NCBI GenBank assembly: GCA_030017955.1
Contig: JASEGR010000002.1
Coordinates: 10,485 to 74,484, forward strand
Direction: 5' to 3'
Source: Candidatus Eiseniibacteriota bacterium
GTDB lineage: Bacteria; Eisenbacteria; RBG-16-71-46; JASEGR01
Length of the DNA stretch: 64,000 nucleotides
A program made the position numbers and the translations under genes. The stretch's first letter is position 1. Each line of letters opens with the position of its first letter. A model generated the notes under the pieces. That model searched no databases. It was not told the origin of the DNA and saw nothing but the letters and a program-made list of their open reading frames with translations. Below are positions 36,477 to 53,261 of the stretch, in pieces.

Positions 36477-37327
36477 TTGAAATCCTTGAGTATCATGCAC
36501 CCGCGGGCATTCAAGAGGCGCTCAAGATTCTTTCGAAAACGCGGGGGATAACGATCATTGCAGGCGGCACCGATGAGATTGGACGTTTGAAAGAGGAGAG
36601 AAAACCGCTCTCCGTTCTTGATATTTCCGGAATAAAGTCGTTGAGAGGAGTGAAGATAACGAAGACCCAGATAATCCTCGGTGCTCTCACGACTCACAAA
36701 ACTATCGAAGAGAGCCGGCAGCTGGCGAAGCTCTGCCCATCACTGGTAGAAGCAGCGTCTATGATTGGCTCTCCTCAGATAAGGTCAAGGGGGACGGTGG
36801 GAGGGAACATAGCGAACGCATCACCCGCAGGCGATCTCATACCCCCACTGATTACTTTCGACGCGAAGGTCGTCCTTGCATCAAGAAGCGGAAGGAGGGA
36901 AGTGCCACTGGAAAAGCTCCTCAAGGGTCCCGGCAAGACGGCAATCTCTTCGAAGGAGATACTTTCTTCGGTCGTTATTGATAGGCGTGGACTTCCCCCG
37001 CTTCAGAGTTTCAGGAAAGCGGGACAGAGAAACTCCCTGGCGATATCACTCGTAAACGTCGCGGTCGGAGCGCACGTTGAGGGGGGGAAGATAGTGAAGG
37101 TAAGGATAGCGCTTGGCTCCGTTGCGCCGACTGCAATAAGGGCTGTGGCGGCAGAAAAGGTTCTGCTGGGCCGGATTCCGACCAGAGAGCTTGTCGCCAA
37201 AACCTCGAAAGTTGCCGCCGGGGAATCGAAGCCGATAGATGATGTTCGGGGCCACGCCTGGTACAGAAAAGAGCTTATACAGGTTCTGGTGGAAGACGCA
37301 TTTGAGCGGATACTGGACTTGTCCTAG
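36473..37327 (+). CDS. Molybdenum hydroxylase FAD-binding subunit, copy 2
   Basis: ATG 36473 (ATGA overlap with the upstream stop) gives MIEILEYHAPAGIQEAL. IAGGTDE and GTVGGNIANA are present. The track start at 36308 is an upstream out-of-context extension. Confidence 0.85.
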   Translation: MIEILEYHAPAGIQEALKILSKTRGITIIAGGTDEIGRLKEERKPLSVLDISGIKSLRGVKITKTQIILGALTTHKTIEESRQLAKLCPSLVEAASMIGSPQIRSRGTVGGNIANASPAGDLIPPLITFDAKVVLASRSGRREVPLEKLLKGPGKTAISSKEILSSVVIDRRGLPPLQSFRKAGQRNSLAISLVNVAVGAHVEGGKIVKVRIALGSVAPTAIRAVAAEKVLLGRIPTRELVAKTSKVAAGESKPIDDVRGHAWYRKELIQVLVEDAFERILDLS

Positions 37328-38145
37328 ACGGTCAAAACCTCAAAACTCCTGGTTCCACTGAAGTTCATCGCATACTGCCTTTCTGCAATGTATCCGAGAT
37401 CAGAAAGGAGCCGGAGAGTATCTTCGATTTCCTCAACAGTCCAGTTGACCTCCTGAGCCAGGGTTGACAGCGCTAGAACTCTCATTTTCTTTCTTGCGAT
37501 GAGCCTTGCGAGGCCGATCGAGCGTGAGTACAAGCTGTAGTTTGCGCCTGGCTCCGGAAGCTCAGGCACGATAAGTAGGGCAAGAGATGAAGCGAAATTC
37601 CCAAGTCTCTCATTCGGACATTCAACGAATAAGTCGAACCTGTGCTCAGGCTCCTTGTGACCGCATGTGATACCGCTGCACCTCCTCACGCCGCTCAAAG
37701 ATGAGATCGTGTCTATGAGAACATGCTCGAACACATGGGCCACATCAGCGGCGGCTCCTCTGTCAGGGGCACCGCATTGGGATTGGCCCTCGAGGGAAAG
37801 GAGCGTCTCAATAAGGGTTGAACTGCCGCAGCACTTGTGATTGGGGAGAGCAGGGAAGAGAACAGCCAATCTTCCGATGACCTGGGGAAGGCGCTTTCTG
37901 AATTCCAAAGAAAGCTCTTGTCCGATTTCAATGGTCAGCTTGAGCCTCCACAGCTCCTCACTGAAACCAGGATTAAGCGGAGTAGCTTCTTCGTGTGGTC
38001 CGTAGTCTCTTGCGATGAGTCTCATGCTGGTGCCGTTAGTGTCGTGTCCCGGAAATTCCTTGTATATGTCTTTGCCCAGGGACACGACACTTTCATAGGG
38101 GTTTGTTACCCCTCTGACGCTTCTGGATGCTCCTCTTTGTCGCAT
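37324..38145 (-). CDS. Hypothetical protein with a C-terminal winged-helix-like segment; the N-terminal part faintly resembles the cyanophycin-synthetase N-domain
   Basis: The only similarity I can point to is LPNHKCCGS...VAHVFEHVLID against the CphA N-domain motif (EHxCSxG...H[IV]VEHVALE). The C-terminus reads LSTLAQEVNWTVEEIEDTLRLLSDLGYI. The start is uncertain (ATG 38145 or ATG 38025). Confidence 0.4.
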   Translation of the reverse strand: MRQRGASRSVRGVTNPYESVVSLGKDIYKEFPGHDTNGTSMRLIARDYGPHEEATPLNPGFSEELWRLKLTIEIGQELSLEFRKRLPQVIGRLAVLFPALPNHKCCGSSTLIETLLSLEGQSQCGAPDRGAAADVAHVFEHVLIDTISSLSGVRRCSGITCGHKEPEHRFDLFVECPNERLGNFASSLALLIVPELPEPGANYSLYSRSIGLARLIARKKMRVLALSTLAQEVNWTVEEIEDTLRLLSDLGYIAERQYAMNFSGTRSFEVLTV

Positions 38146-38162
38146 CCCTACGCTGTCACCCT

Positions 38163-38186
38163 GAGGGGGTCGGCCACGACCCCCTC
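38163..38186 (-). other. Perfect 10-bp stem / 4-nt loop hairpin (GAGGGGGTCG-GCCA-CGACCCCCTC)
   Basis: Read directly from the sequence. It lies between the palindrome at 38275 and the start of the 273-aa gene. Confidence 0.5.
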
Positions 38187-38273
38187 ATACCCCCTGGCAG
38201 TGTGCCTTATGAAACGCCCCGCATTTCGTAAAGTCATCTCTGGGAGGGCACACTGGCTCTGCGCTGGCTGCAA

Positions 38274-38307
38274 AGAAGAAGGGGAAGAATATTCTTCCCC
38301 TTCTTCT
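38274..38307 (-). terminator. Perfect 32-34 nt palindrome (GAAGAAGGGGAAGAAT|ATTCTTCCCCTTCTTC), probable intra-cluster terminator or attenuator
   Basis: It starts 13 nt after the stop of the small gene at 38320. The stem is up to 17 bp and is followed on the minus strand by TTGCAG, a weak U-tract. Confidence 0.6.
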
Positions 38308-38319
38308 CGAGTGACCGGC

Positions 38320-38532
38320 CTACCAACTCCAGTCGTCGAACTTGGACTCGTCCTTGTCAAGAGTGCCATGAAGAACAACTCTGTATTCGCCGGTCTCCGG
38401 ATTGACCAACTCCACTTTTGCCCTTGCGTTGGTCGAACAGACCAGCATCTCGGAGAGCTTGTTTCTGAGCGATGCAGGGGCGGTCGGCGACTTCTCAAGA
38501 TAATCAAAATCCTGAATCTTGAATCTTGGCAT
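38320..38532 (-). CDS. Small conserved hypothetical protein, paralog 1 (70 aa)
   Basis: MPRFKIQDFDYLEKSPTAPASLRNKLSEMLV...TGEYRVVLHGTLDKDESKFDDWSW. About 60% identical to the adjacent ORF over its full length. Confidence 0.6.
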   Translation of the reverse strand: MPRFKIQDFDYLEKSPTAPASLRNKLSEMLVCSTNARAKVELVNPETGEYRVVLHGTLDKDESKFDDWSW

Positions 38533-38554
38533 GATAAAAATCCTCCTTCAGAGT

Positions 38555-38761
38555 TTAGGGCGTATCCCACCTGCTCTCGTCTTTGTCGAGTGTTCCCTGG
38601 AGAACAATCCTGTACTCCCCGGTCGTCCTGTTGACGGCCTCCACCTTGCAGTTGGCATTGTGAGAATTAAGTAGCATCTGGCTCACTTTGTTTCTCAGAT
38701 TTCCCGGAGAAGTCGGCCATCTTTCGAGGCACTCGAAATCCTGGAGATTGAACTTCGGCAT
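38555..38761 (-). CDS. Small conserved hypothetical protein, paralog 2 (68 aa)
   Basis: MPKFNLQDFECLERWPTSPGNLRNKVSQMLL...TGEYRIVLQGTLDKDESRWDTP, preceded by the strong RBS GGGAGGAGGTGA. Confidence 0.6.
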   Translation of the reverse strand: MPKFNLQDFECLERWPTSPGNLRNKVSQMLLNSHNANCKVEAVNRTTGEYRIVLQGTLDKDESRWDTP

Positions 38762-38812
38762 TGCTCATCACCTCCTCCCTATTAGGGTCTGGAATTCTCT
38801 TCCTCGTGAAGC

Positions 38813-39187
38813 TCAGTCCTTTTCAGACTCGTACGGCTTTTCGCATGCGATGACGAACCTGTACGGAGCCGTTATTGCAGGCAGATCCCTGGTGCAGAAC
38901 ATGCACTTTTCTCTTTCTGGTTCCACCCTGTTTTGTTGCCTGGACATCTGTTTCACCCACTCCTTTACAAGCTCAAGTCTCAGAACTTGGTCGATCTCCC
39001 CGGTCTCATTCCATGAACTCATGGCTTTCTTCATGAGGAGCGGATTTGTCGTCAGAACCTCTCTGAAACCGAGAAGCGCTTGTTCCTTTGAAAGCGGTTT
39101 TTCGCGGATAATAGGGGTTTCGTTTATGACTGGAAGAAGACCTGAATCTTCTAGAAGACGTTCGAGCAGCAGCCGTTGATCTGACAA
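38813..39187 (-). CDS. Hypothetical protein (124 aa)
   Basis: TTG start preceded by GGAGGGTG. No motif recognised. It is the first gene after a 315-nt gap. Confidence 0.45.
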   Translation of the reverse strand: MSDQRLLLERLLEDSGLLPVINETPIIREKPLSKEQALLGFREVLTTNPLLMKKAMSSWNETGEIDQVLRLELVKEWVKQMSRQQNRVEPEREKCMFCTRDLPAITAPYRFVIACEKPYESEKD

Positions 39188-39502
39188 GACACCCTCCGAT
39201 TTATTCCCGCGCTTCGCCTGTTCTCTGGAAGGGCAGGATGGGAAGCATGCTGTTTATCTAATCGTCAGGCTGGGCTTTACACTTGAGGGAAATCTTCTAC
39301 TGGCAGGAAAACGAATGGGGTCATGAGCGACTGGGATGGCTGACAGTGATGAACCCTGAGCTGGCTTCTGTGGGAGGGATGGGGACACATCTTGGCGAGC
39401 AAGGTGGGGATACCCAGCCCTTCAGACGCTGGGAGGGGCAAGGATTCCCCGCCTAGCGGGCCATAGATGGGTCATCCCGGAGCGGAGCCGGCGAAGGGCT
39501 CA

Positions 39503-40300
39503 TCACTGTGGTAGTTCCTGGGGGAGCGTCTCAATGACCGACAGGATGCGCGAGAACAGGTCTTCGAGAACCTTCGAGATTGAGCCGGTCCCGGAAGGTC
39601 TTCTGAGGAGCTGGAGGTCGAAAGGGAGAAATCCGAGCCCGACCGGAGTGAAATTGAGAAAACGGTCTGAGACTCCAGCAAGTATTTGAGAAGCACTTCG
39701 CCCCTCGTTAGGCGTGGTACACCTGTTAACCACAACACCGACTCTGGAAGTCGTTTTGCCCAGGACAATGTTTTTGAGAAGGGCATAATTGGAAGTCAGC
39801 GATAGAGGGTCAGGTGTTGCTACGATCACCGCAAACGTTGAGATTTCACGAAGCTCCGCGCCAGGACCTCCCAGACCCGATGGAATGTCAAGAATAATGC
39901 AGTCGAATTCTCTTGATATGGGTTCAAGGTCGCCGCGGACTGAGAGATGCTCCTCGTGTGAGAGCCCCGAGAGACTGCCGAGTCCGGGACACCCGGCAAG
40001 AACGCTGACTCCGGTCTTGGTTTCCTTCACGCACGACCTGAGTGTCCTTTTCCCTTCGAGATACTGAGCAAAGTGATCATCCGGCTCGATGCCAAAGAAA
40101 AAGTGGCTTGAACCAAGACTCCAGTTAGCGTCAACGAGTAGAGTTTTCTTTCCGAGCCTGGAAAGCCACAAGGAGAACTGAGTCGCCAGGTAGGATACTC
40201 CGGTCCCCCCGTTGCCCGAGGAAAAACTGATGAGTACGCCCTGGAGCGATCCGAAATCTTGCGCAAGACCGGGCCTTCCTTCAGACGCCTCATCGTTCAT
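39503..40300 (-). CDS. MinD/ParA/FlhG-like P-loop protein with a degenerate Walker A motif
   Basis: 265 aa with LISFSSGNGGTGVSYLA where MinD has SGKGGVGKT. LLVDANWSLGS (Switch-I-like), CIILDIPSG (Walker B-like) and VVVNR are also present. Confidence 0.7.
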   Translation of the reverse strand: MNDEASEGRPGLAQDFGSLQGVLISFSSGNGGTGVSYLATQFSLWLSRLGKKTLLVDANWSLGSSHFFFGIEPDDHFAQYLEGKRTLRSCVKETKTGVSVLAGCPGLGSLSGLSHEEHLSVRGDLEPISREFDCIILDIPSGLGGPGAELREISTFAVIVATPDPLSLTSNYALLKNIVLGKTTSRVGVVVNRCTTPNEGRSASQILAGVSDRFLNFTPVGLGFLPFDLQLLRRPSGTGSISKVLEDLFSRILSVIETLPQELPQ

Positions 40301-41180
40301 TGTCTTTTTGTCCGGATTCCCCCGGAGAAGAACCTCCGAGGGACATTATCTCGGCAATGGTCAGGAGCCCCGCCTTTGGCTTCTCGTCCGGCACTGCGAA
40401 CTTTTCCCTGAGCTTCCTCAAGGCTTCCTCAATGTCCTCGGCCTCTTGAATCTGCATGGGACCGGCGCCCCCTCCGTCAAGTGAGAACTCGAGAAAACCT
40501 CGTCCTGCCTGGATGGTTGCTACCGGCTTCTGGAATGCCTCCACAAAGATTCTTCCACGCTCGCACTTCAGAGAGACTCCGGGAAAGAGCTTCTGGATTC
40601 TCCCCGCCGCCCGCATCGCAAGATTTCGCAATTTGTCCGGCTCTATTTGGGAGAAAAATGCGGGCAGAGATTCCGCATCCACCCGCTTGATGCGGGACAG
40701 GTTCACTGCGTTGAAGACGGGGTACTTCTCATCCTTGCCGAGAAGGACTACTCTGAGTTCGAAAAGCTCAATTGCATAGCTGGAGAAGGAGGCCATCCGT
40801 TCAAGAAAGATATCTGGAAAAGAGGGAGCAGCAACTACTATCCTGCAAGCTTCAGCGTTGACCGCTTCACTCCCTGGAAAAAGAATCGAGAAAAACCAGG
40901 GGTTTTTCTTCTCCCACAGGTAAATATCCAGCAGTTCCAAGAAGAGCCCGTCTGAAGGTTCGAGTGATATGCAGAGGGACACAGGCTTCCGATTGCAGTC
41001 GATCCCGACAAGATAGCTTCTTTCTTTCTGAGAAGCTTTTATCAAGCCGGGCGGAAGCTTCTTCTCACCACCCTTGAGGATTACCGAATATCCATTCTCG
41101 AAAGAGTGCGGCCACCGGATGATGAGCTCAGCGAGTTCGTCGAGGTCGTGAATATCAGTGAAAGAGATTCTGGCGTGCAT
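40290..41180 (-). CDS. Hypothetical protein (296 aa)
   Basis: First gene of the minus-strand cluster; its end overlaps the ParA-like gene by 11 nt. No confident motif; the segment LVGID...LLDIYLWEKK is only vaguely nuclease-like. Confidence 0.45.
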   Translation of the reverse strand: MHARISFTDIHDLDELAELIIRWPHSFENGYSVILKGGEKKLPPGLIKASQKERSYLVGIDCNRKPVSLCISLEPSDGLFLELLDIYLWEKKNPWFFSILFPGSEAVNAEACRIVVAAPSFPDIFLERMASFSSYAIELFELRVVLLGKDEKYPVFNAVNLSRIKRVDAESLPAFFSQIEPDKLRNLAMRAAGRIQKLFPGVSLKCERGRIFVEAFQKPVATIQAGRGFLEFSLDGGGAGPMQIQEAEDIEEALRKLREKFAVPDEKPKAGLLTIAEIMSLGGSSPGESGQKDNER

Positions 41181-41336: not shown

Positions 41337-41410
41337 CAAACATAATGTAGGGTTCTGTTGTCTGTGCTGGACGATGATGTTTCAGGGAATTGCACTGCTC
41401 TGGAGGTGCC

Positions 41411-41893
41411 ATGAAGACAGAGGTAATTGACATTGATCTTCCCAAAGACACGAATGTGATCATTGGGCAAGCCCACTTCATAAAGACGGTTGAAGACCTC
41501 TATGAGGCATTCGTGACTTCTGTGCCGGCTGCGAAGTTTGGCGTAGCATTCTCCGAAGCTTCGGGGCCCTGCCTTGTCCGTTCTGAAGGGAACGATGCTG
41601 AACTCAAGGAATCTGCAGAGAGGGCAGCTCTTTCAATAGGAGCCGGGCATGTGTTTGTTGCCTTCATGAAGGATGCCTTTCCAATAAACGTCCTTGGGGC
41701 AATCAAATCGTGCGATGAGGTGTGTTCCATCTTCTGTGCCACAGCCAATCCTCTCCAGGTCGTTGTTGCGGAAACTGAAAAAGGAAGAGGAATCATGGGT
41801 GTCATAGACGGATCGCCGCCAAGGACCGTTGAAGGCAGCGAGGATGTGAAGAACAGGAAATCCTTCTTGAGACGGATAGGATACAAGCTGTAG
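41411..41893 (+). CDS. Adenosine-specific kinase family protein (PF04008/DUF355-like)
   Basis: ATG 41411 follows GGAGG. The sequence TNVIIGQAHFIKTVEDLYEAFV...FSEASGPCLVRSEGND...IFCATANPLQVVVAET matches my memory of this family. Confidence 0.7.
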   Translation: MKTEVIDIDLPKDTNVIIGQAHFIKTVEDLYEAFVTSVPAAKFGVAFSEASGPCLVRSEGNDAELKESAERAALSIGAGHVFVAFMKDAFPINVLGAIKSCDEVCSIFCATANPLQVVVAETEKGRGIMGVIDGSPPRTVEGSEDVKNRKSFLRRIGYKL

Positions 41894-41919: not shown

Positions 41920-44900
41920 ATGTCCGATATCGATATTGGAAAAATCCTAGCCGGAAGGTACAAGGTCCTTGCTCGTCTCGGCACCGGGGGCATGGGCTCG
42001 GTTTACAAAATCGAGGATTTGAAACAGGGCGGTATCAAGGCTCTAAAGCTGCTCTCCAGAGAACTGAACACTCGAAAAGATAGAGAGCGGTTTGTGAGGG
42101 AGTTCCTGCGGCTCTCGAAACTTGAGCATCCAAACATCGTTCGTGTTCACGAACAGGATTGGGCAGATGATGTCAGTCCCTTCTACACGATGGAATTCAT
42201 CGAAGGGAAGAATCTTCTGGATGCATGGGCATTGATGGAATCAGAACGAGCTTGCTCGGTAGTAGCGGATATTCTTCAGGGCCTCATGTTCATCCATTCA
42301 AGAGGGATAGTCCACCTGGACGTGAAGCCATCAAACATCTTTGTAATAGATGCTGGTCCCCGCCCCACTGCGAAGCTCGCGGACTTCGGTCTCGCGAGGT
42401 TGTTTCGTGAAAAGGGATCGGGCAAAGTCTCCGGCACACCGGGATTCGTTGCTCCTGAGCTGCTCGAAGGGAAGGGAGCTGACGGAAGGTGCGATCTCTA
42501 TTCTTTCGGCGTGACGATTTGCCATGCAGCGAGCGGCGGCAAGATTGAGTTCGATGAGAACAGGGAAGTCGTCTTTCGCGCCGGCCTTTTTTCCAGAATG
42601 CCCCAAGGGTTTGAGAAAGTGATATCGAGATTGCTGGAGCGGGACCCACGAAAAAGGTACCAGTTCGCCGATGAGGTGCTGAGGGACTTTTCCCAATTTC
42701 TGGGAAGAACATATGTTGCTACCGGGAAGGGGACAGTATTCCTGCCGGCTTTCACAGGAAGACAGAAATTGATTCGGGAGTTCGACTCTCTCCTTCTGGA
42801 TCAAACTCAGAACAACAGGGCCGTCCTCCTCGTGCGTGGAGAATCCGGGACCGGCAAGACGCGGCTCCTTGAAGAATTTGCTGCAACTGCGTCCATGAAG
42901 GGATTCTTCCCGATAATGATTGACTATCCGGGAAAGAATCGTGGACTGGAGATCTTCCACCAATTTTGCGAGAAGTCGTTTGAGAGGACCGGCGATGAGT
43001 TTTTCCTCGAAGCCCGTTCAAGGTTCTCAGCGTGGGCCGGGAGCTCAGAAAGAGAATTCTTCCTTCAAGTCGACGAATTTCTCTGCAAAGCAGCAGAGAT
43101 ACTTTTCCGGAAACCCGGCACGAAGCCCCACCTTGTTGTTCTTGTTGACTCAGCTCATCTAATCGATGAGTTGAGTTTCGCATATATCAGCATGTTCTCG
43201 AATAATTCATCGCTTGCTGGCGGCCTCTTTGTCCTCACCTGCCTTGATCCGCCTCCTGTTCATTCCTTCCTCGAAGAGGATGAACTTTCGAAAGCCTCCG
43301 GGTTCCAGAGGCGTGAACTTGATCCTCTTTCCAGGGACGAGATCGAGCTTGTAGTCGCATCGATGCTCGGGACCGCTACTCCTCCGTCCGGCCTGGCTCA
43401 AAGGGTCTTTGAAATATCTCAGGGTAATCCTCTCTATGCCGTCCAGTTTGTGAAGATGGCTGTCGAGGGGAAAATTCTCTCACGAGCGGGCGGAGCCTGG
43501 AAATATGATGAAGAGGGGAAAGAGCTGCCTCTACCGGGGTCTCTGGAGGCTGCGTTTGAGAATATTCTTTCAGGCCTTGGCACTGAGACTCTTTCAGTTC
43601 TCAAAGCTGCGAGCGTTTTTGAGATCTCAATACTGGGCGATTTCCTTGAAGAGCTTGTCTCTCTCAAGCCGGAAGGTTTTCTTGACTCTTTGGGTGAGCT
43701 TCTAGGTAAGGGACTTCTTTCAGAACAGGGAGATGGCCTCTTCTTTTTTTCAAACTCATCTTTGCAGCAATACGTGGAGAGGAGGTTAGAGCCAGGGAGG
43801 AAGAAGGAGCTACATGAGCATCTTGCCGGCATCCTTGAAGAGAAATCGGACGCGGATGAGACAGTCTGGGAGATTGCCGATCACTACCTGAAAAGCAATC
43901 GCCTCGATAAGGCAAAGGAGTACGCAAGAAAAGCTGCCGGCCTTGCACTGAGAAGAAGATGCCCGAGAAAAGGCGCTCATTTCCTGAAGACCCTCCTTGA
44001 GCTGCATCCTGAAGTCTCTGAAGAAGAGAAGAATGAACTCATGATTCAGCTTGCAGATCTTCTCGAGGAAGCCGGGATGCTTGACCAGGCACTCGGTGCT
44101 TTGAAATCTCTGGAAGCAAAAGAAGGCGATGCCTCTCCGTTCGCGCTGAAAGCAATCTTCAGAGAGGGTGTCATTCTTAGAAAGAAGGGAGAGCTCAGGC
44201 AGGCGAGGGAAAAACTCGATGCGTGTCATATCCGGGCTGTCGAACAGGGGCAGGAATCTGTATGCGGGGAGATCCTGCTTGAGCTTGGCTGGCTCGAACA
44301 TCTCGAGGGAAGAGGCGGTGAGGCAGTCAGCACCTTTGAGACAGCCCGGGAAATCTTTGACGGTCTTCAGGATTCCAAGAATGTCGCTCTCGCGCTTATG
44401 AGAAAAGGAATAGTGGAAATCTACTCCGGAATGTTTGATGGGGCAGAGGCCTCATTCTCCGAGGCCCTCTCTATCGGCAGGAAAGAGGATGATATCCTGA
44501 CCATCCAGAAGTGTCTTTTGAACATCGGTTTCGTCCTGGACAATAAGGGTGAGCTGGAAAAGGGCCTCGCAACCTACAAGGATGCGCTCTCGCTGTCGGA
44601 GGGGCGAGAGGATAGTTTTTCTGCGGCGCTCATACTCAACAATGTCGCCTCTGTCGAGGAGAAACTCGGGAGATTCGAGGAAGCGGAGAAGTGTTATCTG
44701 CAGGTAATCGACTTGAGAAACAGGATTGGCAACAAGAGCGGCGAGGCGTGGTCCAGAGTCTCGCTTAGTTGGGTCCTCATGCTCAGGGGTGAGTGGCTGA
44801 AGGCTGAGGAATATATCACCCAGGGGCTTGAGATGTCATGCCGGTTGGGAGACAGGTCCACTCTCTCCGCGGCCAAAGAGAATCTGGCTCTTCTTTCCCT

Positions 44901-47070
44901 TAGGAAAGGCGACATCGGTCAGGCCGAGAAGCTACTTCTTGAAAGCAGGGAACTCAAAGACGCGTTGGGACTGAAAGCCAGGTCTCTTGTTACCAGCGCG
45001 AATCTGGCCTTTCTTGCCATCGAGAAAGAGGAAGCTGCAAAGGCAGAAGCTCTTCTGAGGTCTGTTCTTGATGAAAAGAAGGAATTCGTTGAACCGTCGT
45101 TTCGGGTAAGATTGCTTTCCTGCTTGGCGTACACCTTATGTCTCAGGAATGAGTCCAAAGATGCGGCGGGTTACGTGAGCAAGAGTCTTGATTTGCTTCC
45201 ACGGTATGAGAACAAAGTCGATGTTTCAAGCTCAAAGAGGATTCTGGGTCAGAGCCTATGCATCTTGGGGGATGGGGAGAAGGGACTTTCACTTATTGAG
45301 CAGGCAATTGCTGAATTCCGGGAGATGGGAGCCCCCTATGAAGAGGCGGAGTCTCTGCTTGCGAAGGGGGGAATCCTCGCGGATGATGCAGGGAAACAAG
45401 GTGAGCGGGCGGAGCCGCTCAAATCGTTAAAGGGTGCGATCAAGATCTTCAGAAGATTGGGGGCAAAGAGGAAGCTTGAAGAAACGCTCGGCCTTTATGC
45501 GGCAGTTCTGGAATCTGCTCTCAGCAGAACCGGGAAAGAAGCGAGAAGGGAAGCCGACACCCTGGCTCTGCGCGAAATGCTGGAGCTTGCCAACTCAATT
45601 GAGAAGACAGAGAAACTTCTGGGCAAGGTCATGGAGCTCGCATTGAGGAAGACGGGTGGCGAGAGGGGATTGATCGCACTCTTCTCAAAGAGGACCGGGA
45701 GATTGGAAGTGGTTGTGAACTCGGGTGTCGAGATGGGACTCGTCAGGGACGCGCTCAGGATCTCCAGGTCAGTGCTTGAAGATGTCGCCGAGAAAGGAAT
45801 ACCCCTGATATCAAGAAACGCAGCAGAGGACGAGAGACTCAGAGAAAGAAAGAGCGTTGTCGATTACCAGATTCATTCGCTCATGTGCATTCCCCTTGTC
45901 ATAAAGAGTGAGAAGGTTGGAGCAATATATATTGACAAGAGAGAGGACCTGAGTCCCTTTGCGGAGGACGATCTCTCTTTCCTGCAGGCGTTCGGCCACC
46001 TGGCCGGAGTAATTATTGAGACCTCAAGGCTGAGATCTGACCTCGAAGAGGCGAGAGATTCTCTTTCCAGGGAAAACGAGTCGTTGAGAATAGAAGTTGT
46101 CTCGCGGTACCGGTACGAGAACCTCGTCGGCCAGAGTGAGGCAATAAGAAAGGTGTTTTCTTTCATTGAGAAAGTCGCCGGTTCGACGGCTCCGGTCCTG
46201 ATCACGGGAGAGAGTGGGACTGGTAAGGAGCTTATTGCAAAAACAATTCATTTCACCGGCCCGAGAGCAGGCAAACCGTTCAGGGGCGTAAACTGCGCAG
46301 CCATCCCTAGAGAACTGATCGAGAGCGAGCTCCTTGGAATCGAAGAGAAGGTTGCGACCGGCGTGAGCATGAGAAAAGGACTTTTTGAAGAAACCGAGGG
46401 CGGAACGGTGCTTCTGGACGAGATAGGAGATATGGACCCTTCAGTCCAGGCAAAAGTCCTTCGCGTTCTCCAGGATGGAGAAGTTAGAAGGGTCGGCGGA
46501 AGGAAAGACATAAAGGTCGATGTCAGGACAATCGTGGCCACAAATAAGGACCTCAGGAATGAAATCAAGGAGGGAAGATTCAGGGAAGATCTATATTTCA
46601 GAATTTCGACACTTCCCATCGAAGTGCCGCCCCTGAGAGAGAGAACGGAGGATATCCCGCTGCTCGCTGATTTCTTCGTAAAGAACTACTATAAGAGTCT
46701 CGGAATGAGACCAAAACCGCTTCCTCAGGAATTCATTCAGGCTCTGGTGAAAGGAAGGTGGTCCGGGAATGTCCGGCAGCTCTTCAACTGCCTTGAAAGG
46801 ACTCTTGTCATGTCAGAGGGCTCGGAGATCTCTTTTGACTACTTGCCTGACGAAGTCCGGGAGGGATCTGGCCCGGCTCTGGCGGCCTTCGCTCCAGGCG
46901 AGGAGACCCTCATGGAGGTAATCTCAAAAGTCGAGCTTGAAATGCTGAAGAGAGCCCTTGAAGAATCATCCTGGAACAGAACCAAAGCCGCCAAAATCCT
47001 CGGAATTCCTGAACCGACAATACGATACAAAATGAAGAAGTACGGTCTCACGCCTCCTCGCAAAAATTAG
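41920..47070 (+). CDS. 1716-aa fusion: Ser/Thr protein kinase, STAND/AAA ATPase, TPR array, GAF, sigma54-interaction AAA+ domain and Fis-type HTH
   Basis: Kinase motifs are GTGGMGSVYK, IKALK, HLDVKPSNI and LADFGLAR. The P-loop reads RGESGTGKTRLLEEF. Long TPR-like repeats and a GAF region follow. The EBP core carries LITGESGTGKELIAK, VLLDEIGDM and FREDLYFRI. The C-terminal HTH reads WNRTKAAKILGIPEPTIRYKMKK. Confidence 0.9.
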   Translation: MSDIDIGKILAGRYKVLARLGTGGMGSVYKIEDLKQGGIKALKLLSRELNTRKDRERFVREFLRLSKLEHPNIVRVHEQDWADDVSPFYTMEFIEGKNLLDAWALMESERACSVVADILQGLMFIHSRGIVHLDVKPSNIFVIDAGPRPTAKLADFGLARLFREKGSGKVSGTPGFVAPELLEGKGADGRCDLYSFGVTICHAASGGKIEFDENREVVFRAGLFSRMPQGFEKVISRLLERDPRKRYQFADEVLRDFSQFLGRTYVATGKGTVFLPAFTGRQKLIREFDSLLLDQTQNNRAVLLVRGESGTGKTRLLEEFAATASMKGFFPIMIDYPGKNRGLEIFHQFCEKSFERTGDEFFLEARSRFSAWAGSSEREFFLQVDEFLCKAAEILFRKPGTKPHLVVLVDSAHLIDELSFAYISMFSNNSSLAGGLFVLTCLDPPPVHSFLEEDELSKASGFQRRELDPLSRDEIELVVASMLGTATPPSGLAQRVFEISQGNPLYAVQFVKMAVEGKILSRAGGAWKYDEEGKELPLPGSLEAAFENILSGLGTETLSVLKAASVFEISILGDFLEELVSLKPEGFLDSLGELLGKGLLSEQGDGLFFFSNSSLQQYVERRLEPGRKKELHEHLAGILEEKSDADETVWEIADHYLKSNRLDKAKEYARKAAGLALRRRCPRKGAHFLKTLLELHPEVSEEEKNELMIQLADLLEEAGMLDQALGALKSLEAKEGDASPFALKAIFREGVILRKKGELRQAREKLDACHIRAVEQGQESVCGEILLELGWLEHLEGRGGEAVSTFETAREIFDGLQDSKNVALALMRKGIVEIYSGMFDGAEASFSEALSIGRKEDDILTIQKCLLNIGFVLDNKGELEKGLATYKDALSLSEGREDSFSAALILNNVASVEEKLGRFEEAEKCYLQVIDLRNRIGNKSGEAWSRVSLSWVLMLRGEWLKAEEYITQGLEMSCRLGDRSTLSAAKENLALLSLRKGDIGQAEKLLLESRELKDALGLKARSLVTSANLAFLAIEKEEAAKAEALLRSVLDEKKEFVEPSFRVRLLSCLAYTLCLRNESKDAAGYVSKSLDLLPRYENKVDVSSSKRILGQSLCILGDGEKGLSLIEQAIAEFREMGAPYEEAESLLAKGGILADDAGKQGERAEPLKSLKGAIKIFRRLGAKRKLEETLGLYAAVLESALSRTGKEARREADTLALREMLELANSIEKTEKLLGKVMELALRKTGGERGLIALFSKRTGRLEVVVNSGVEMGLVRDALRISRSVLEDVAEKGIPLISRNAAEDERLRERKSVVDYQIHSLMCIPLVIKSEKVGAIYIDKREDLSPFAEDDLSFLQAFGHLAGVIIETSRLRSDLEEARDSLSRENESLRIEVVSRYRYENLVGQSEAIRKVFSFIEKVAGSTAPVLITGESGTGKELIAKTIHFTGPRAGKPFRGVNCAAIPRELIESELLGIEEKVATGVSMRKGLFEETEGGTVLLDEIGDMDPSVQAKVLRVLQDGEVRRVGGRKDIKVDVRTIVATNKDLRNEIKEGRFREDLYFRISTLPIEVPPLRERTEDIPLLADFFVKNYYKSLGMRPKPLPQEFIQALVKGRWSGNVRQLFNCLERTLVMSEGSEISFDYLPDEVREGSGPALAAFAPGEETLMEVISKVELEMLKRALEESSWNRTKAAKILGIPEPTIRYKMKKYGLTPPRKN

Positions 47071-47147
47071 CGCCCGCTCGTAGATTTTTCCCAATAAGAA
47101 TCCGCTTAATTGCCAATGAGTTAGGAGTATATATGCGTCCATCTCGC

Positions 47148-47195
47148 AAATTATTGCGATTGGACCGTCGTTGTGGGGCTCATACGCAATAATTT
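47148..47195 (+). promoter_or_regulatory. Perfect 11-nt inverted repeat AAATTATTGCG-26 nt-CGCAATAATTT (possible activator-binding UAS)
   Basis: Read directly from the sequence. It lies 75-125 nt upstream of the sigma54-like element at 47270. Confidence 0.35.
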
Positions 47196-47269
47196 TCCAT
47201 GGCTCGCTAGGTACCCTAACTCACGAATTTCCAAGACGATAACAGAAAGTCTCCTTCGGTTCTGTTGTC

Positions 47270-47285
47270 GGGCATGCTAGTTGCG
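47270..47285 (+). promoter_or_regulatory. Sigma54-like -24/-12 element (GGGCAT-GCTAG-TTGCG)
   Basis: The GG-to-GC spacing equals the consensus TGGCAC-N5-TTGCW. The first base is G rather than T. Confidence 0.45.
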
Positions 47286-47373
47286 AGCGGTTTGAATGTT
47301 GAGGTGGCGCCACCTTCTTCGGGCAGTAAACAACATGCTCGGGACTTCTTGACCTCGAAGGGAGGTGGACTGA

Positions 47374-47568
47374 TTGAGTTCAACGTGGATTGTGTTGCTG
47401 CTATTTGCTCTTCTTCTGGTGCTGCCTTCACTTGCAGTTATGGCGGAAGCAGACGGTGGGAGTGAACCGTACCCCAGTGATCCGCCGCCTCCAGATGGAG
47501 GTGGTACTTCGACCGGATCGTTTGGAGAGATCCTGCTGTGGTTCCTGGTGGCTATGGTCGTTGATTAG
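47374..47568 (+). CDS. Small putative secreted or membrane peptide (64 aa)
   Basis: TTG start 6 nt after GGAGGTG. It has an N-terminal signal-like helix (WIVLLLFALLLVLPSLAVMA), a Pro/Gly-rich middle and a C-terminal hydrophobic tail (ILLWFLVAMVV). Confidence 0.4.
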   Translation: MSSTWIVLLLFALLLVLPSLAVMAEADGGSEPYPSDPPPPDGGGTSTGSFGEILLWFLVAMVVD

Positions 47569-47736
47569 GGGCTGCAGTCTCACTCATCGGGCGGTCTTGA
47601 GACAGCCTTGGCCGCCCGTGCCCCGCAGTGTTTGATCCATCGTTTTGAAGAAGGGTCCACTGCGCGAGAACTTGATAAGAACACTGATGGCTAAGTACAT
47701 TCCGGTAGGAAGCACGGATAATATCGGCACAGAGGG

Positions 47737-48285
47737 ATGGATGATATGAGAACACAAATAGAGCCGGCACTCGGCGCACGGCTGGATGAAGTTGAGTTCT
47801 TGTTGCAGAGATCAAGCAAGTCACTTTCCAATGTTCTCATCATGGGCGAGAACAAAGCTGTACGGCTTGTTATCGCCTTTTCATTTCACAGCCGGGGAAG
47901 GACATCCCGTCTCCCATTCCTTGCTACAGACTGTAAGAATTTTCTTGGCGAGCTAAAGGAAAAACTGATAGATGGGCTGGACGGAAAAGACCGCAATGCA
48001 GGACATGTATCGCCGGTCACATGGGGAGTGTCCGGGACGACGTTTCTTGATGAGGCCGATGAAATCAGCGTGAGCGAGCAGAAGCTCTTCCTCGAGTTTG
48101 TGAAAGAAAGGGAGAGACAGAAATTTCTGTCGGTGCATTCGCCGATCGGAAGACTCGTGATTGGATCGGGGAAGAACCTCGAGGATTTATGCAGGTGGGG
48201 GAAATTTCTTCCCGAGCTATATGACTGCCTGAACAAAGTCAAGGTGAACCTCGCAAGCACTCCCACGCTGAGACTCGTGGAATAA
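47737..48285 (+). CDS. Degenerate stand-alone sigma54-activator AAA+ core (no Walker A lysine, no GAFTGA, no HTH)
   Basis: VLIMGENKAVRL replaces VLITGESGTGKE. GTTFLDEADEIS (Walker B region), KLFLEFV, RLVIGSGKNLEDL and LYDCLNKVKVNL are retained. Confidence 0.6.
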   Translation: MDDMRTQIEPALGARLDEVEFLLQRSSKSLSNVLIMGENKAVRLVIAFSFHSRGRTSRLPFLATDCKNFLGELKEKLIDGLDGKDRNAGHVSPVTWGVSGTTFLDEADEISVSEQKLFLEFVKERERQKFLSVHSPIGRLVIGSGKNLEDLCRWGKFLPELYDCLNKVKVNLASTPTLRLVE

Positions 48286-48295: not shown

Positions 48296-48706
48296 ATGAC
48301 CATTCAGGATCCTGTTGCTTCGAGGAAAAAGACCGTGCTCCTTTTCCTCCCCGGAGGAACGGAACGCTGGCCACTTGAAGAGGAACTTACGACGAGGGGT
48401 CACAGAGTCACATCTGCATTCTCTGCAGAGGACGTTCTCCTCATGACGTCCTACATCAAATACGATCTGATTGTGACAGAGATTGATGTCAGGGATGAAC
48501 TCGGCCTCTCATTACCCAGAACCATCAAGAAGAAAAGCCCCGGGACCGTAATTCTTGGACTGATTTCTCCCGGTTCGACTCTTAACATCGAGAAACTTCA
48601 ATCCTTGGGCATAGAGGAAGTTTTTCTAGGACCTGAGGACCTTCTCAAAAGCCCACTGCTCACCCCCATAATCGACGAAGAAGGTCAGACCTCACAGGCA
48701 GAGTAA
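48296..48706 (+). CDS. Pseudo-receiver domain protein
   Basis: It has a REC-like beta/alpha pattern. LLFLPGG replaces the DD pair, DLIVTEIDV has E at the phospho-Asp position, and FLGPED lacks the conserved Lys. Confidence 0.5.
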   Translation: MTIQDPVASRKKTVLLFLPGGTERWPLEEELTTRGHRVTSAFSAEDVLLMTSYIKYDLIVTEIDVRDELGLSLPRTIKKKSPGTVILGLISPGSTLNIEKLQSLGIEEVFLGPEDLLKSPLLTPIIDEEGQTSQAE

Positions 48707-48812: not shown

Positions 48813-48828
48813 TGGCATGGTAGTTGCT
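48813..48828 (+). promoter_or_regulatory. Sigma54 promoter (TGGCAT-GGTAG-TTGCT)
   Basis: Exact consensus spacing. It lies 55 nt upstream of ATG 48883 and is nearly identical to the element upstream of gvpA. Confidence 0.65.
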
Positions 48829-48882: not shown

Positions 48883-49359
48883 ATGCTCATGCTTGGAAAT
48901 ACACAGAGGATGCGAAAGAAAAAAGATGTAGCCGCGGATAGGCTACTTAAGAAAACTCGGGCACAATCAAAGCCTATGAAAAGCAGTCAAAAGAAGAAGC
49001 GTGTTTTGGTTGTCGATGACGAAGTGCAGATATGCAACATCGTTCAAAAGGTGTTGTCGCGAGAAGGCTACCACATCGTTACTGCACTTAGTGGTGATGA
49101 GGCCTTGAAGCAGTTGGAAAAAACAGCAGTCGACTTAATCCTGGTGGATTTGAAAATGCCCGGCATGGATGGATTGGAGATGTTAAGACAGGCGCGCGAC
49201 ATTCAGGGGAGTCTGCGAGCGGTCCTCATGACCGCCTATGGAACGGCCTCCTCGGCCCGAAATGCCATGGCTCTTGGCGTTTGCGATTTTGTGGCGAAAC
49301 CATTCGATAACCGACTTCTCAAGAAGGTCGTAAAGGAGGTCCTGGGTGCCGACCGATAA
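48883..49359 (+). CDS. Single-domain response regulator (CheY-like receiver)
   Basis: Contains RVLVVDDE, DLILVDLKMPGMDG, VLMTAYG and FVAKPF. The basic N-terminal tail makes the start uncertain. Confidence 0.85.
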   Translation: MLMLGNTQRMRKKKDVAADRLLKKTRAQSKPMKSSQKKKRVLVVDDEVQICNIVQKVLSREGYHIVTALSGDEALKQLEKTAVDLILVDLKMPGMDGLEMLRQARDIQGSLRAVLMTAYGTASSARNAMALGVCDFVAKPFDNRLLKKVVKEVLGADR

Positions 49360-50041
49360 ACTGCTCGGCTCGTCTCCCGGGCCCAGTCGAGACAGAAGCG
49401 TCGGCCATGCACAGGGGAGGCGAGTAATTTATATTCCAATTATTCACACTCAACATGACATGGGAAGCTTGGCTGCTGCGGCCAAGACGGCCTACATTGA
49501 AAAACTGGGCAAGAGGTTTTGGCAAAACCATGTAGAGGCGATCGACGAAATGTGGTATGGCATCAAGCAGCGCATTTCACGGCTGAGGCTGCCCTTCAAC
49601 AGAGTCCGTATCTATCAAGATGGGTTACCGGTGTGTGGGAGGGAGGAGTGCATCATCGATGCCTTGGCAGGCCAAGGCAGTCCGAACCACTTGATCGTGG
49701 AATGGTTGGTGAAGCGAGGTGCCACGCTCGTTGGAACTGAAGACCCAGAGCTGTTGATTCAGGAGTACGACTACGTGAAGCGAATTATTGCAACCCCGAG
49801 CGGTCCCCAAAGAGAAAATGCGGTGAGGGAATATGAGAAGGTAGCCCCGGAGTTGCTAAAGAAGCGAGACCACTTTATTCAGAACCGGATCGATAGGACC
49901 CTGCCGCAGGGAGGGATAGGTCTGCTTTTCGTGGGGCTGCTGCATCGGGTGGATGAACTCCTGCCGGCAGACATTCGAGTCAGTTACCTCATATATCGTC
50001 TTCCCTTTCAACGTAGCTTTGAAATGGAGTTGCTGAAATAG
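49346..50041 (+). CDS. Conserved hypothetical protein within the regulatory operon
   Basis: GTG start 6 nt after AAGGAGG. 231 aa with no recognised motif. Confidence 0.45.
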   Translation: MPTDKLLGSSPGPSRDRSVGHAQGRRVIYIPIIHTQHDMGSLAAAAKTAYIEKLGKRFWQNHVEAIDEMWYGIKQRISRLRLPFNRVRIYQDGLPVCGREECIIDALAGQGSPNHLIVEWLVKRGATLVGTEDPELLIQEYDYVKRIIATPSGPQRENAVREYEKVAPELLKKRDHFIQNRIDRTLPQGGIGLLFVGLLHRVDELLPADIRVSYLIYRLPFQRSFEMELLK

Positions 50042-50069: not shown

Positions 50070-51190
50070 ATGTTGAACGAATTGCTTAACGTTCAAGATA
50101 TCATTCAAAGCCGCCATGAATTGTTACAACTGTTCGACGGTCTCAGTGACCCTATCATCATGATTGACAGACAGTTTGTCATTCAACGTGTGAATTCGGC
50201 AACTCTCTTGGCCTTGGGCAAGAAATCATTCGATGAATTCATTGAGAAGCCCTGCTACGAAATGCTGCACGGTTTGAGACAGCGCTGTCCTCAGTGTACT
50301 GCACCCTTAACCTTTTCTTCGGACTCTCCTGGACAGAAGACCGTACGCACCGGCTTCATGGAAGCCAAAGAGAACCCGTTGAAAACAACCTATAATATCA
50401 CGTGCTATCCGCTCATCAATGATGAAGGAGAGATAACCTCGATTGCGGAATATTATCGGGACAGCTCCGATATCGTGAATCTGAGCCGGGAACTGTATGA
50501 ATCCGAGCGGGCACGGATCATGGAATCACTGGCAGTGGGACTGGCTCACCAAATCCGGCAGCCGCTGACTATCATACGCTCCGCCGCCCAGTACGGGCTC
50601 GACACATTTACAGCTAAAGACAACTCCGCGAAAAAGGATCTTCGGGAAACCATGGAGAGTATCGTTCAGAATGTGGACACGGTGAACGATGTCCTCAATG
50701 ATTTGTTGCTATTTTCAAAACCTACCCAGTACAAGATGAAGAAGGGGTCTGTTGTTAAGTTGTTACAACAGGGGCTTCGGCTCGTCCGGCAGCTGACTAA
50801 AGAACAGCAGATTTCGGTGGCTACAGATTGGTCCCAAGACCTGCCGGAAATCCTGATCGACGAAAGACTCCTGCTCCAGGCATGTCTGAATTTATTGATG
50901 AACTCGATAGAGTCTATGACGAAGGGAGGACAGTTGACCGTCAAGGCGTTTTGTCAAGAGAATACGACACCTCCCAAAGTCTGCATCGCCATCGAAGACA
51001 CCGGCGTGGGGATCCCCAAGGAACTCATCTCGAAATTGTGTCAGCCTTTCTTTACCACGAAAGAGGGGGGGTCGGCTTGGGCCTGCCTGTTGCTGAAGGA
51101 ATCATTAGGTCGCACAGCGGCCGACTGCACTTTGAAAGTCGGGAAACTGGTGGAACGACAACTGTGATTGAGCTGCCCGTGGTCGTGTGA
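50070..51190 (+). pseudogene. PAS-sensor histidine kinase interrupted by a -1 frameshift in a G7 run
   Basis: The H-box reads LAHQIRQPLT, the N-box LLMNSIESM, and the G1 box EDTGVGIP. After FFTTKEGG (G-run 51065-51071) the G2 box and C-terminus (GVGLGLPVAEGIIRSHSGRLHFESRETGGTTTVIELPVVV) continue in the other frame to 51190. Confidence 0.75.
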
Positions 51191-51206
51191 TTCGGAGTGT
51201 TGTGGT

Positions 51207-52882: not shown

Positions 52883-52898
52883 TGGCATGAGTTTTGCT
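52883..52898 (+). promoter_or_regulatory. Sigma54 promoter of the gas-vesicle operon (TGGCAT-GAGTT-TTGCT)
   Basis: Exact -24/-12 consensus spacing. It lies 33 nt upstream of the gvpA ATG, with the RBS AAGGGAGGTGA in between. Confidence 0.7.
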
Positions 52899-52930
52899 TC
52901 TGACAAATTGTAAGAAGGGAGGTGAGTTAG

Positions 52931-53146
52931 ATGCCAGTCCAAAAAGCAATGGCGAGTTCTTCACTCGCAGAGGTTATCGATCGCATTCTCGATAAGGGAA
53001 TCGTGATCGATGCATGGGCCCGCCTTTCCCTGGTGGGAATCGAGTTCTTAAGTCTGGAAGCCCGGGTAGTTGTCGCGGGTGTCGAGACGTACCTGAAGTA
53101 TGCGGAAGCCATCGGGCTTACGCAGTCAGCGGCCAGTCCAGCTTAA
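52931..53146 (+). CDS. gvpA: Major gas vesicle structural protein GvpA
   Basis: 71 aa: [54 protein letters not shown]. Confidence 0.95.
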
Positions 53147-53261
53147 ATGAGAACGGGCAGATTTGTCGGGATAACCTCATTCCTTGAGTTTATGTCGCCA
53201 AATCAAGCCGCCCCTTTCGGGGTGTTATGAGTTTCCTATTTGCAAGGAGGGATCAGGCATC

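Follow-up and report, generated by a model that had tools for sequence, protein, structure and literature searches.

A giant protein joining a Ser/Thr kinase, a STAND switch and a sigma54-type activator, with a putative target operon beside its gene

We analysed a 64-kb (64,000-nt) stretch of DNA from Candidatus Eiseniibacteriota bacterium (contig JASEGR010000002.1; hereafter the window), and describe here a gene on its + strand that encodes a single protein of 1716 amino acids (the giant). The protein is a PknK/MalT-like STAND module, consisting of a kinase, a nucleotide-binding oligomerization domain (NOD), an arm and tetratricopeptide repeats (TPR), fused to a complete NifA-type enhancer-binding protein (EBP). 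This assignment was made because the motifs are intact, the STAND part matches a known STAND fold and the C-terminal part matches NifA. We observed the domains with intact catalytic motifs, the predicted STAND fold, and a conserved arrangement of promoter, upstream activating sequences (UAS) and peptide gene after the stop codon. On balance, the giant is probably a sigma54-dependent activator of this adjacent peptide operon, gated by its STAND/TPR/GAF/kinase input module.

Domain architecture and the family of giants

The open reading frame (ORF) starts with an ATG at 41920 and ends with a TAG at 47068-47070. An earlier note, made by reading the sequence, had proposed six domains for it. Pfam recovered all six in the proposed order on a single polypeptide, and the two kinase motifs quoted there, HLDVKPSNI (residues 132-140) and DFG (residues 155-157), are both present in the translation. 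The features of the gene are as follows.

41920..47070, + strand: giant-regulator gene, encoding kinase, STAND NTPase, TPR, GAF, sigma54-type AAA+ and HTH_8 (ORF, Pfam, collinear homologues)
41959..42669, + strand, residues 14-250: Pkinase (Pfam E 2.5e-40, 139 bits against a cut-off of 31.7)
42751..43779, + strand, residues ∼278-620: STAND oligomerization domain made of nucleotide-binding (NBD), helical (HD) and winged-helix (WHD) domains (Pfam AAA_16, AlphaFold2 model, fold match)
Residues 278-438, + strand: AAA_16 (Pfam E 2.3e-14, 54.7 bits against a cut-off of 32.6)
43792..45519, + strand, residues ∼625-1200: arm and TPR-like sensor solenoid (Pfam TPR_MalT, TPR_12, TPR_2; model)
Residues 831-1129, + strand: TPR_MalT, plus TPR_12 and TPR_2 (Pfam E 5.7e-14)
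45610..46017, + strand, residues 1231-1366: GAF, also matched by GAF_2 and GAF_3 (Pfam GAF E 1e-9)
46123..46869, + strand, residues 1402-1650: sigma54-interaction AAA+ core and lid (Pfam)
Residues 1402-1568, + strand: Sigma54_activat (Pfam E 2.2e-61, 206.9 bits against a cut-off of 20.2)
46336..46365, + strand: variant of the sigma54-contact (L1) loop, G-I-E-E-K-V-A-T-G-V; canonical form G-H-E-K-G-A-F-T-G-A (translation, loop census)
Residues 1573-1650, + strand: AAA_lid_14 (Pfam E 2.4e-21, 75.8 bits)
46927..47043, + strand, residues 1670-1708: Fis-type helix-turn-helix (HTH) DNA-binding domain HTH_8 (Pfam E 9e-14)

Judged from the translation, residues 14-250 have the predicted fold and the catalytic motifs of a Hanks-type Ser/Thr kinase. 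K43, E61, H132, D134, K136, N139, D155-F-G157 and P179-E180 are all present, and the top PDB sequence matches of the domain are StkP and PknB (about 1e-28). We aligned 13 giants that carry the variant loop (26–32% identical to the window protein; hereafter the subclade). Lys43, Glu61, His132-x-Asp134-x-Lys136-Pro-x-Asn139, Asp155-(Phe)-Gly157, Pro179-Glu180 and Arg246 are invariant among them. Over a wider set of 39 diverse giants, the catalytic positions of the kinase and of the EBP, as well as the Walker A Gly and Lys of the STAND domain, are conserved at ≥90%. The catalytic loop of the window kinase is not of the arginine-aspartate (RD) type, as it reads HLD; relatives have HGD (L001, L002 and L006; L numbers denote loci) or HRD (L004), and the family is mostly non-RD.

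The Walker A motif of the STAND domain, GESGTGKT, is intact, with G310, G312 and K313 invariant in the subclade, while its Walker B region reads VLVDS in the window protein where relatives have DD. An AlphaFold2 model of residues 258-1200 (predicted local distance difference test 86.8; predicted TM-score 0.73) combines an alpha/beta NBD with helical and winged-helix parts, an arm and a long solenoid of helical repeats, the TPR region being an unbroken series of helix pairs. The top PDB fold match of this model is 6MFV_A, the TPR-sensing STAND protein PH0952 (E 2.8e-16 over 752 aligned columns). As modelled, the succession of NBD-HD-WHD core, arm and repeat sensor places the protein in the MalT/PH0952 class of STAND proteins. 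The best sequence and fold matches of the TPR solenoid are to TPRs of the LGN/Pins/KLC type, and a weak sequence match to NprR was also obtained (E 0.004).

The predicted NOD-arm-TPR fold and the AAA_16 and TPR_MalT matches are shared with MalT and PH0952, and, as in MalT, the DNA-binding output lies C-terminal to the sensor. Unlike in these proteins, this output is a whole ATP-driven sigma54 activator instead of a LuxR or ArsR HTH, the N-terminus carries an additional kinase, and the Walker B region is VLVDS. In architecture, the N-terminal 1200 residues resemble Mycobacterium tuberculosis PknK, where a Hanks kinase also precedes a MalT-like NTPase and repeats; PknK is not known to carry a GAF-AAA+-HTH extension. 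In the literature it serves as the archetype of STAND kinases (PMC4381067, PMC1262709).

In the EBP module, the Walker A motif GESGTGKE (Gly1433, Gly1435, Lys1436) and the Walker B motif LLDE (D1500, E1501) are invariant in the subclade, and the Sigma54_activat core is followed by a lid, as expected of an EBP. Residues 1205-1707 match the solved NifA chain 9qq6_C with an E-value of 2.6e-90. The giant has its GAF domain, sigma54 AAA+ core and Fis-type HTH in the same order as NifA-type EBPs, and the NifA model TIGR01817 aligned over its whole length. No NCBIfam model reached its cut-off for the giant, TIGR01817 being the best (377.5 bits against 528.85). As a score of 377 bits falls short of this equivalog cut-off of 529, we do not call the giant NifA. 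It also differs from NifA-type EBPs in its KVATGV loop, in ∼1200 extra N-terminal residues and in the lack of nif genes nearby.

A homologue search of ∼5.8 billion proteins gave 2255 matches. The best 119 non-self matches are 1362-2045 residues long; all of them have Pkinase and Sigma54_activat, and nearly all have AAA_16, TPR, GAF and HTH_8. At least seven phylum-level labels are represented among these 119, with sources labelled Thermoanaerobaculia/Acidobacteriota, Gemmatimonadota, Zixibacteria, Poribacteria, Planctomycetota and Deltaproteobacteria, and a scan of species-representative genomes adds Bacteroidota, Rhodothermales, Myxococcota and Polyangia. Judged by these matches, the giant belongs to a widespread collinear family. 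The earlier note had described a fusion of this size as unusual and proposed a search for the same architecture in other genomes. This architecture was found in at least 119 other protein clusters, so that 'unusual' does not hold in the sense of rare. The nearest protein in the search is only 32% identical to the giant, which therefore is a divergent member of a large family.

That the giant ORF is an assembly or annotation chimera of separate genes is extremely improbable, and we rejected it because of the collinear homologues. Thirteen independently assembled homologues align with it end to end (query coverage 96–100%), and more than 100 independently assembled proteins in the range of 1362-2045 residues are collinear with it. 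In addition, the 5151-nt frame is uninterrupted and the G+C content is uniform across the gene (0.51-0.52). The only independent contig from a close relative, L092, covers the last 140 codons of the giant.

Members of the family are named in databases as 'sigma 54-interacting transcriptional regulator', 'protein kinase', 'Nif-specific regulatory protein' and, at JGI, 'PknK'. Kinase-sigma54 fusions may have been mentioned for Sorangium cellulosum. Full-text searches of the literature that was searchable turned up no experimental or descriptive paper on the kinase-STAND-EBP architecture. A 2005 survey of bacterial kinase architectures lists the kinase plus MalT-like combination (PknK) but not the sigma54 fusion (PMC1262709). 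The family is catalogued but uncharacterized, and the window protein is a divergent new member of it.

The variant loop and the region downstream of the gene

The L1 loop of the giant, a detail that goes beyond the earlier description, reads KVATGV (residues 1477-1482) and not GAFTGA. The stretch around it is ELLGIEEKVATGV, compared to ELFGHEKGAFTGA in a usual EBP; the Thr and Gly of GAFTGA are retained and no other position of it is. In a census of 120 giants, 15 share the form G-I-E-x-x-[VAT]-A-T-G-V (P0090, counted among them, reads G-I-A-D-R-V-A-T-N-V). Nearly all the others have GAFTGA or a close form of it (GSFTGA, GAYTGA, GAFTSA, GAFSGA), and 7 of the 120 were not matched by the search pattern. 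Within the subclade, Gly1473, Ile1474, Ala1479, Thr1480 and Val1482 do not vary.

A neighbour-joining tree built on AAA+ cores groups all 20 variant-loop sequences (15 from giants, 5 from ordinary EBPs) into a single clade, which otherwise contains only the window's own NtrC-type EBP. With a degenerate DNA pattern for the loop (ELFGIE-x3-ATGV), at least 120 metagenome loci (L094-L213) were retrieved, mostly on JGI (Ga-prefixed) contigs. All of these encode EBPs of ∼300-730 residues, and there is no giant among the loci listed. Ten ordinary-size variant-loop EBPs were scanned for domains, eight from the metagenome scan and two from the metagenome-assembled genome (MAG) loci L010 and L017; seven of the ten are GAF-AAA+-HTH_8 proteins. 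This distribution suggests that GAF-type EBPs whose L1 loop is not GAFTGA form a large subfamily that has gone unremarked.

The same type of non-canonical loop is present in DVUA0100 of Desulfovibrio vulgaris (GVATGV) and in the 'xATGV' lineage around it. Unlike the giant, DVUA0100 and the metagenomic EBPs are ordinary single-component proteins without a kinase/STAND part. The GVATGV loop of DVUA0100 has been noted before, and a regulon reconstruction suggests that it still serves sigma54 promoters (PMC4641369). We also considered that the loop of the giant is degenerate and non-functional. This was rejected because the variant is invariant in the subclade and marks a large EBP lineage; by these comparisons, KVATGV is a conserved, lineage-specific natural alternative and not a product of decay.

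The DNA that follows the giant gene contains the following features.

47058-47073: UAS-like site TCGCAAAAATTAGCGC (pattern search, repeat finder)
47144-47159: UAS-like perfect dyad TCGCAAATTATTGCGA (pattern search, repeat finder)
47184-47199: UAS-like site ACGCAATAATTT (pattern search, repeat finder)
47270-47285, + strand: sigma54-type -24/-12 promoter GGGCATGCTAGTTGCG (position-specific matrix score 12.2, P 0.024)
47374..47568, + strand: gene for a 64-residue peptide, predicted to be exported or membrane-bound (ORF; good Shine-Dalgarno sequence)
47737..48285, + strand: gene for a stand-alone degenerate Sigma54_activat protein of 182 residues (179 from the start chosen by gene callers; Pfam E 2.3e-9)
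48296..48706, + strand: gene for a pseudo-receiver (weak Response_reg match; alignment with two normal receivers)

The first dyad-like site overlaps the region of the giant's own stop codon. The region 47148-47285, which the earlier note had suggested as a possible target, indeed has the perfect dyad and the sigma54-type promoter.

The sigma54 matrix is our approximation of published frequencies. It was scored downstream of giants whose flanks could be fetched, and P-values are relative to the best site in random 500-nt windows from the same loci. Flanks were available for seven variant-loop giants (window, L001, L002, L004, L006, L088 and L089). All seven have a co-directional sigma54 site 70-290 nt past the stop codon, with scores of 12.2-17.4 bits and P ≤ 0.024 in each case. 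The canonical-loop giant L091 also has a downstream site (18.0 bits). Three dyad repeats lie between the stop codon and the promoter in four of the seven (window, L002, L004 and L089) and in L091. These dyads are locus-specific: TTCGTCA-N4-TGA in L002, TGCAC-N8-GTGCA in L004, and CGCCAATATTAGCG, which is near the window motif, in L089. The close relative L092/L093 keeps the arms of the dyads and the GG and GC of the promoter (GG-N10-GC), while its spacer DNA has diverged; in L092, the C-terminal coding DNA of the giant differs at about one base in ten. Sites of ≥12 bits are also found in 13% of the downstream and 13% of the divergent upstream regions of ordinary variant-loop EBPs, compared to 2% of random windows (∼6-fold).

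In silico, the giant has a promoter and UAS-like sites beside it, as would be expected of an EBP with a nearby promoter. Dyads and a promoter after the stop codon are what is typically seen where an EBP gene adjoins its target, and from this signature we argue that the variant loop works with sigma54. Two 17.7-bit promoters and an NtrC-type EBP with canonical GAFTGA, all within 6 kb, indirectly support the use of sigma54 by the source organism.

One alternative is that the EBP module has lost its coupling to sigma54 and either activates transcription with sigma70, represses it or binds DNA in the manner of a nucleoid protein (compare VpsR, TyrR and Caulobacter NtrC). KVATGV does depart from GAFTGA, the Phe included, and EBP homologues lacking GAFTGA that work without sigma54 have been documented (VpsR, PMC6158489; Caulobacter NtrC, bioRxiv 10.1101/2023.06.06.543975). 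However, G-I-x-x-x-x-A-T-G-V is invariant across giants that are as little as 26–32% identical to the window protein, the Thr and Gly are kept, and Walker A and B are intact. The sigma54 promoter after seven of seven variant-loop giants, the 6-fold enrichment in the flanks of ordinary EBPs and the precedent of DVUA0100 (PMC4641369) also argue against a loss of coupling, which we consider unlikely.

The 64-residue peptide has a signal-peptide-like N-terminus, a Pro-rich middle and a hydrophobic C-terminus, and no Pfam or NCBIfam model matches it. Its counterparts in L092/L093 are 83–84% identical, have the same length and also start with ATG. The first gene past the promoter encodes a signal-peptide-like protein in all seven variant-loop giants and in 9 of the 11 giants examined overall. 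The products are as follows.

Window, L001, L002: homologous peptides of 64-75 residues, with a hydrophobic N-terminus, a Gly/Asp-Glu-Pro-rich middle and a hydrophobic tail
L089: 49 residues, signal peptide and poly-Pro tail
L004: signal peptide and GIAQGPRDIPVG repeats
L006, L088: secreted Pro/Thr-rich proteins of 344-359 residues

L214 and L215, with their weak sigma54 sites, likewise have a signal peptide at the start of the next gene's product. L091 is an exception. This locus (9989-13049; Gemmatimonadota label) has a GAFTGA giant followed by three 20-bp repeats and the 18-bit sigma54 promoter; downstream are genes for a 59-residue peptide that lacks a signal peptide, for a radical-SAM enzyme and for a short EBP (333 residues, AAA+-HTH). 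This layout resembles a gene cluster for a ribosomally synthesized and post-translationally modified peptide.

Some further observations concern the peptide genes and their flanks. In L089 (10480-12342), a reverse-transcriptase (RVT_1) gene comes directly after the peptide gene, perhaps through the insertion of a group II intron. The secreted repeat-peptide gene of L004 (11706-11845) has an assembly gap, a run of N, inside its repeats. The presumed 5′ untranslated region of the window's peptide gene (47295-47373), which carries the 12-bp palindrome GGTGGCGCCACC, is near-invariant between the window and L092/L093, while the DNA upstream of it is strongly divergent. An RNA element in this conserved region (47293-47380) was considered and is not claimed, because its fold is no better than those of shuffled sequences (z-score −0.45) and there is no Rfam match. 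Past the peptide ORF (47569-47736), a GC-rich hairpin, CGGGCGG...CCGCCCG, is kept in L092/L093 and could be an attenuator or partial terminator ahead of the downstream genes; between this hairpin and the short AAA+ gene the window has ∼66 extra bases relative to L092/L093.

The short AAA+ protein lacks the Walker A lysine (GENKAVRL) as well as the L1 loop, the lid and the HTH, while Walker B (FLDE) is kept. An 89%-identical orthologue, P0122, is present in the L092/L093 relative. The order of peptide gene and stand-alone degenerate Sigma54_activat protein is the same in the window, L001 and L002. A word-based search returned one close orthologue and weak matches to EBPs of ∼311 residues; the L001 and L002 counterparts were found by synteny because such a search cannot reach them. 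Since it is 89% conserved in a close relative and syntenic beside giants of ∼30% identity, the short degenerate EBP is not debris.

The pseudo-receiver has PGG in place of the acidic pocket DD, a possibly phosphomimetic Glu at the position of the acceptor Asp, and Gly where a Lys is otherwise conserved. This protein is 82% conserved in L092 and is not conserved beside the more distant giants. The earlier note had placed the giant beside degenerate EBP and receiver genes, which is borne out by the short EBP and the pseudo-receiver; the receiver encoded at 48883-49359 is a normal one.

Proposed mode of action and its alternatives

Our preferred reading is that the giant is a one-component, multi-input EBP in which a STAND switch gates the sigma54 activator. 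By analogy with MalT and PH0952 (PMC4381067, PMC6468293), a ligand would bind the TPR sensor and relieve autoinhibition, after which the NOD would exchange ADP for ATP and multimerize. This multimerization may cluster the non-RD kinase domains into active kinases, and may also raise the local concentration of the AAA+ modules so that an active ring forms; the GAF domain could act as a second gate. The C-terminal 510 residues (GAF, AAA+ and HTH_8) would bind the three dyad sites that begin at the giant's own stop codon, and the AAA+ ring would spend ATP to open the promoter at 47270-47285. Once the promoter is open, the genes for the 64-residue peptide and the degenerate AAA+ protein would be expressed, and probably the pseudo-receiver gene as well. 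The short AAA+ protein, dead in Walker A, could be a modulator of the ring and give feedback. DNA binding, sigma54 dependence, the oligomerization logic, the nature of the ligand and the kinase substrate are the inferred parts of this scheme.

Several points weigh against this reading. The canonical-loop giants L090 and L012 have no downstream sigma54 site in the matrix scan of their flanks, and L214 and L215, which also have the canonical loop, have only weak ones. The window promoter itself scores only 12.2 bits (G for T at −26), and the relative L092 reads ATGC at −12. No rpoN gene lies within the 64-kb window, and the promoter at 47270 is not attributable to one particular EBP of the locus. 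Mutagenesis of PspF reportedly indicated that the Phe of GAFTGA is important for open-complex formation, and the Ala that the giant has at this position could therefore impair sigma54 activation. Finally, the coupling of NOD multimerization to AAA+ ring assembly, and the part that the kinase would play in it, are drawn purely from analogy.

A different emphasis would make the giant a PknK-like signalling kinase, whose main output is the phosphorylation of other proteins and whose EBP provides local feedback on a small accessory operon. The strong constraint on the kinase catalytic residues is consistent with this, as are the PknK label that JGI gives to several homologues, the recognition of STAND kinases such as PknK (PMC4381067), and the variable neighbours of the giants beyond the first downstream gene. 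On the other hand, the EBP module is as conserved as the kinase, and no conserved substrate candidate, FHA domain or PP2C phosphatase is encoded nearby at the loci compared. A kinase-centred role, which is compatible with sigma54-dependent activation and does not exclude it, seems rather unlikely to us as the main function.

The adjacency of a TPR protein and a small gene for a predicted exported peptide is also reminiscent of the RRNPP receptors of Firmicutes (NprR, PlcR, Rap). Such an adjacency of TPR giant and small-peptide gene is present in the window, L001, L002 and L089, and the sequence similarity to NprR reaches only the E-value of 0.004 given above. It is conceivable, if quite doubtful, that the giant and the exported Pro-rich peptide form a self-contained peptide autoinduction loop in bacteria of the Gram-negative type, with RRNPP-like logic built on a STAND switch and sigma54. 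In such a loop, the sigma54 promoter would drive the peptide, and the processed peptide, or an envelope state that it reports, would be sensed through the TPR-STAND part. Sensing would then lead to NOD multimerization, kinase activation and AAA+ ring assembly as positive feedback, while the co-transcribed Walker-A-dead AAA+ protein might enter or cap the ring as delayed negative feedback. Unlike the RRNPP systems, the giants differ in phyla, in output domain and in having a STAND NTPase, and at some of the relatives' loci the downstream product is a secreted protein of 340-360 residues. The likeness consists of the adjacency and the weak NprR match; re-import of the peptide and its binding to the TPRs would be hypothetical.

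Genomic surroundings and significance

The giant gene starts 26 nt past a gene of the adenosine-specific-kinase family (41390-41893), which is preceded by a sigma70-like TTGACA-18-TATTGT. Further upstream lies the minus-strand cluster that the earlier note had described as being without known function, and in Pfam its ORFs (37324-41180) indeed gave only a weak ParA/MinD-like match. Beyond the pseudo-receiver gene, the order is as follows.

48813-48828: sigma54 promoter TGGCATGGTAGTTGCT (17.7 bits), before the gene for a normal single-domain receiver
48883-49359: normal single-domain receiver
49346-50041: ORF of 231 residues following the normal receiver, with no Pfam or NCBIfam match
50070-51167: PAS histidine kinase, its gene overlapping by the stop codon with that of the NtrC-type EBP
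51168-52634: NtrC-type EBP (receiver-AAA+-HTH) with canonical GAFTGA, directly upstream of the sigma54-driven gvpA
52883-52898: third sigma54 promoter TGGCATGAGTTTTGCT (17.7 bits), ending 33 nt before the gvpA ATG (52931)

The gas-vesicle cluster (52883-63556) comprises gvpA (52931-53146), a gene for a GvpN-like AAA_5 protein (54637-55575) and one for a CDC48-like double AAA protein (56590-58773), followed by four genes for GvpL/GvpF paralogues (58770-63556), of which one carries a fused DnaJ domain. The pair of PAS kinase and NtrC-type EBP before gvpA resembles the gvrA/gvrB regulators of Serratia gas vesicles. The giant was not assigned as a regulator of gas vesicles, as the cluster has its own PAS kinase, NtrC-type EBP and promoter. 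Gas-vesicle genes do not adjoin the homologous giants at the relatives' loci examined, and we therefore treat the adjacency as local.

A defence-type island is present 17-26 kb upstream of the giant (15688-25327). An AbiEi-family antitoxin-like regulator is encoded at 15688-16803, followed by type I restriction-modification genes hsdM/hsdS/hsdR at 17211-20527 and 22124-25327, between which lies the gene for a Schlafen/AlbA_2 protein with HATPase_c_4 (20559-21965). Given this island, and since the giant couples its STAND NTPase and TPR sensor to an enzymatic domain at the N-terminus, it could be taken for an antiviral (Avs-like) defence protein with the kinase as its effector, and the kinase does match the PD-T4-6 and mad6 kinase models of PADLOC. 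However, the PADLOC matches are at the level of domains (kinase and EBP core) and include no Avs/STAND model. Moreover, the giant has a full DNA-binding EBP with a conserved, cognate-looking promoter, and its immediate neighbours are regulators and gas-vesicle genes and not defence genes. We regard a defence function as very unlikely.

Elsewhere in the window, the region 27520-34779 encodes two tandem large subunits of xanthine-dehydrogenase-family molybdoenzymes, FAD and 2Fe-2S subunits and a MobA-like protein; a further FAD-binding subunit is encoded at 36308-37327. The minus strand at 1432-14853 has a hydrogenase/electron-bifurcation-like cluster with a NiFeSe hydrogenase large subunit, a 1087-residue Fer2/Fer4/pyridine-nucleotide oxidoreductase and an HndC/NuoF-like subunit. 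This HndC/NuoF-like protein has its best outside homologues, at 76–82% identity, in MAGs labelled Bacteroidota, Acidobacteriota and Marinimicrobia.

The giant joins in one chain three signalling devices, a eukaryote-like kinase, an NLR/MalT-style STAND switch and sigma54 enhancer-dependent transcription, in bacteria outside the model phyla, and the family is large in Acidobacteriota, Gemmatimonadota, Zixibacteria and Myxococcota. New here are a conserved cis-module of dyads, sigma54 promoter, predicted exported peptide and degenerate AAA+ partner, and the placing of the KVATGV loop within a large natural EBP lineage. The likely cognate promoter, its sites and the first target gene all lie within 500 bp of the giant's stop codon, and the system could therefore be rebuilt with one DNA fragment. 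The comparisons also lend sequence-level support to the GVATGV-type L1 loop as a working natural alternative to GAFTGA, which matters when EBPs are scored as functional or degenerate in genome annotation.

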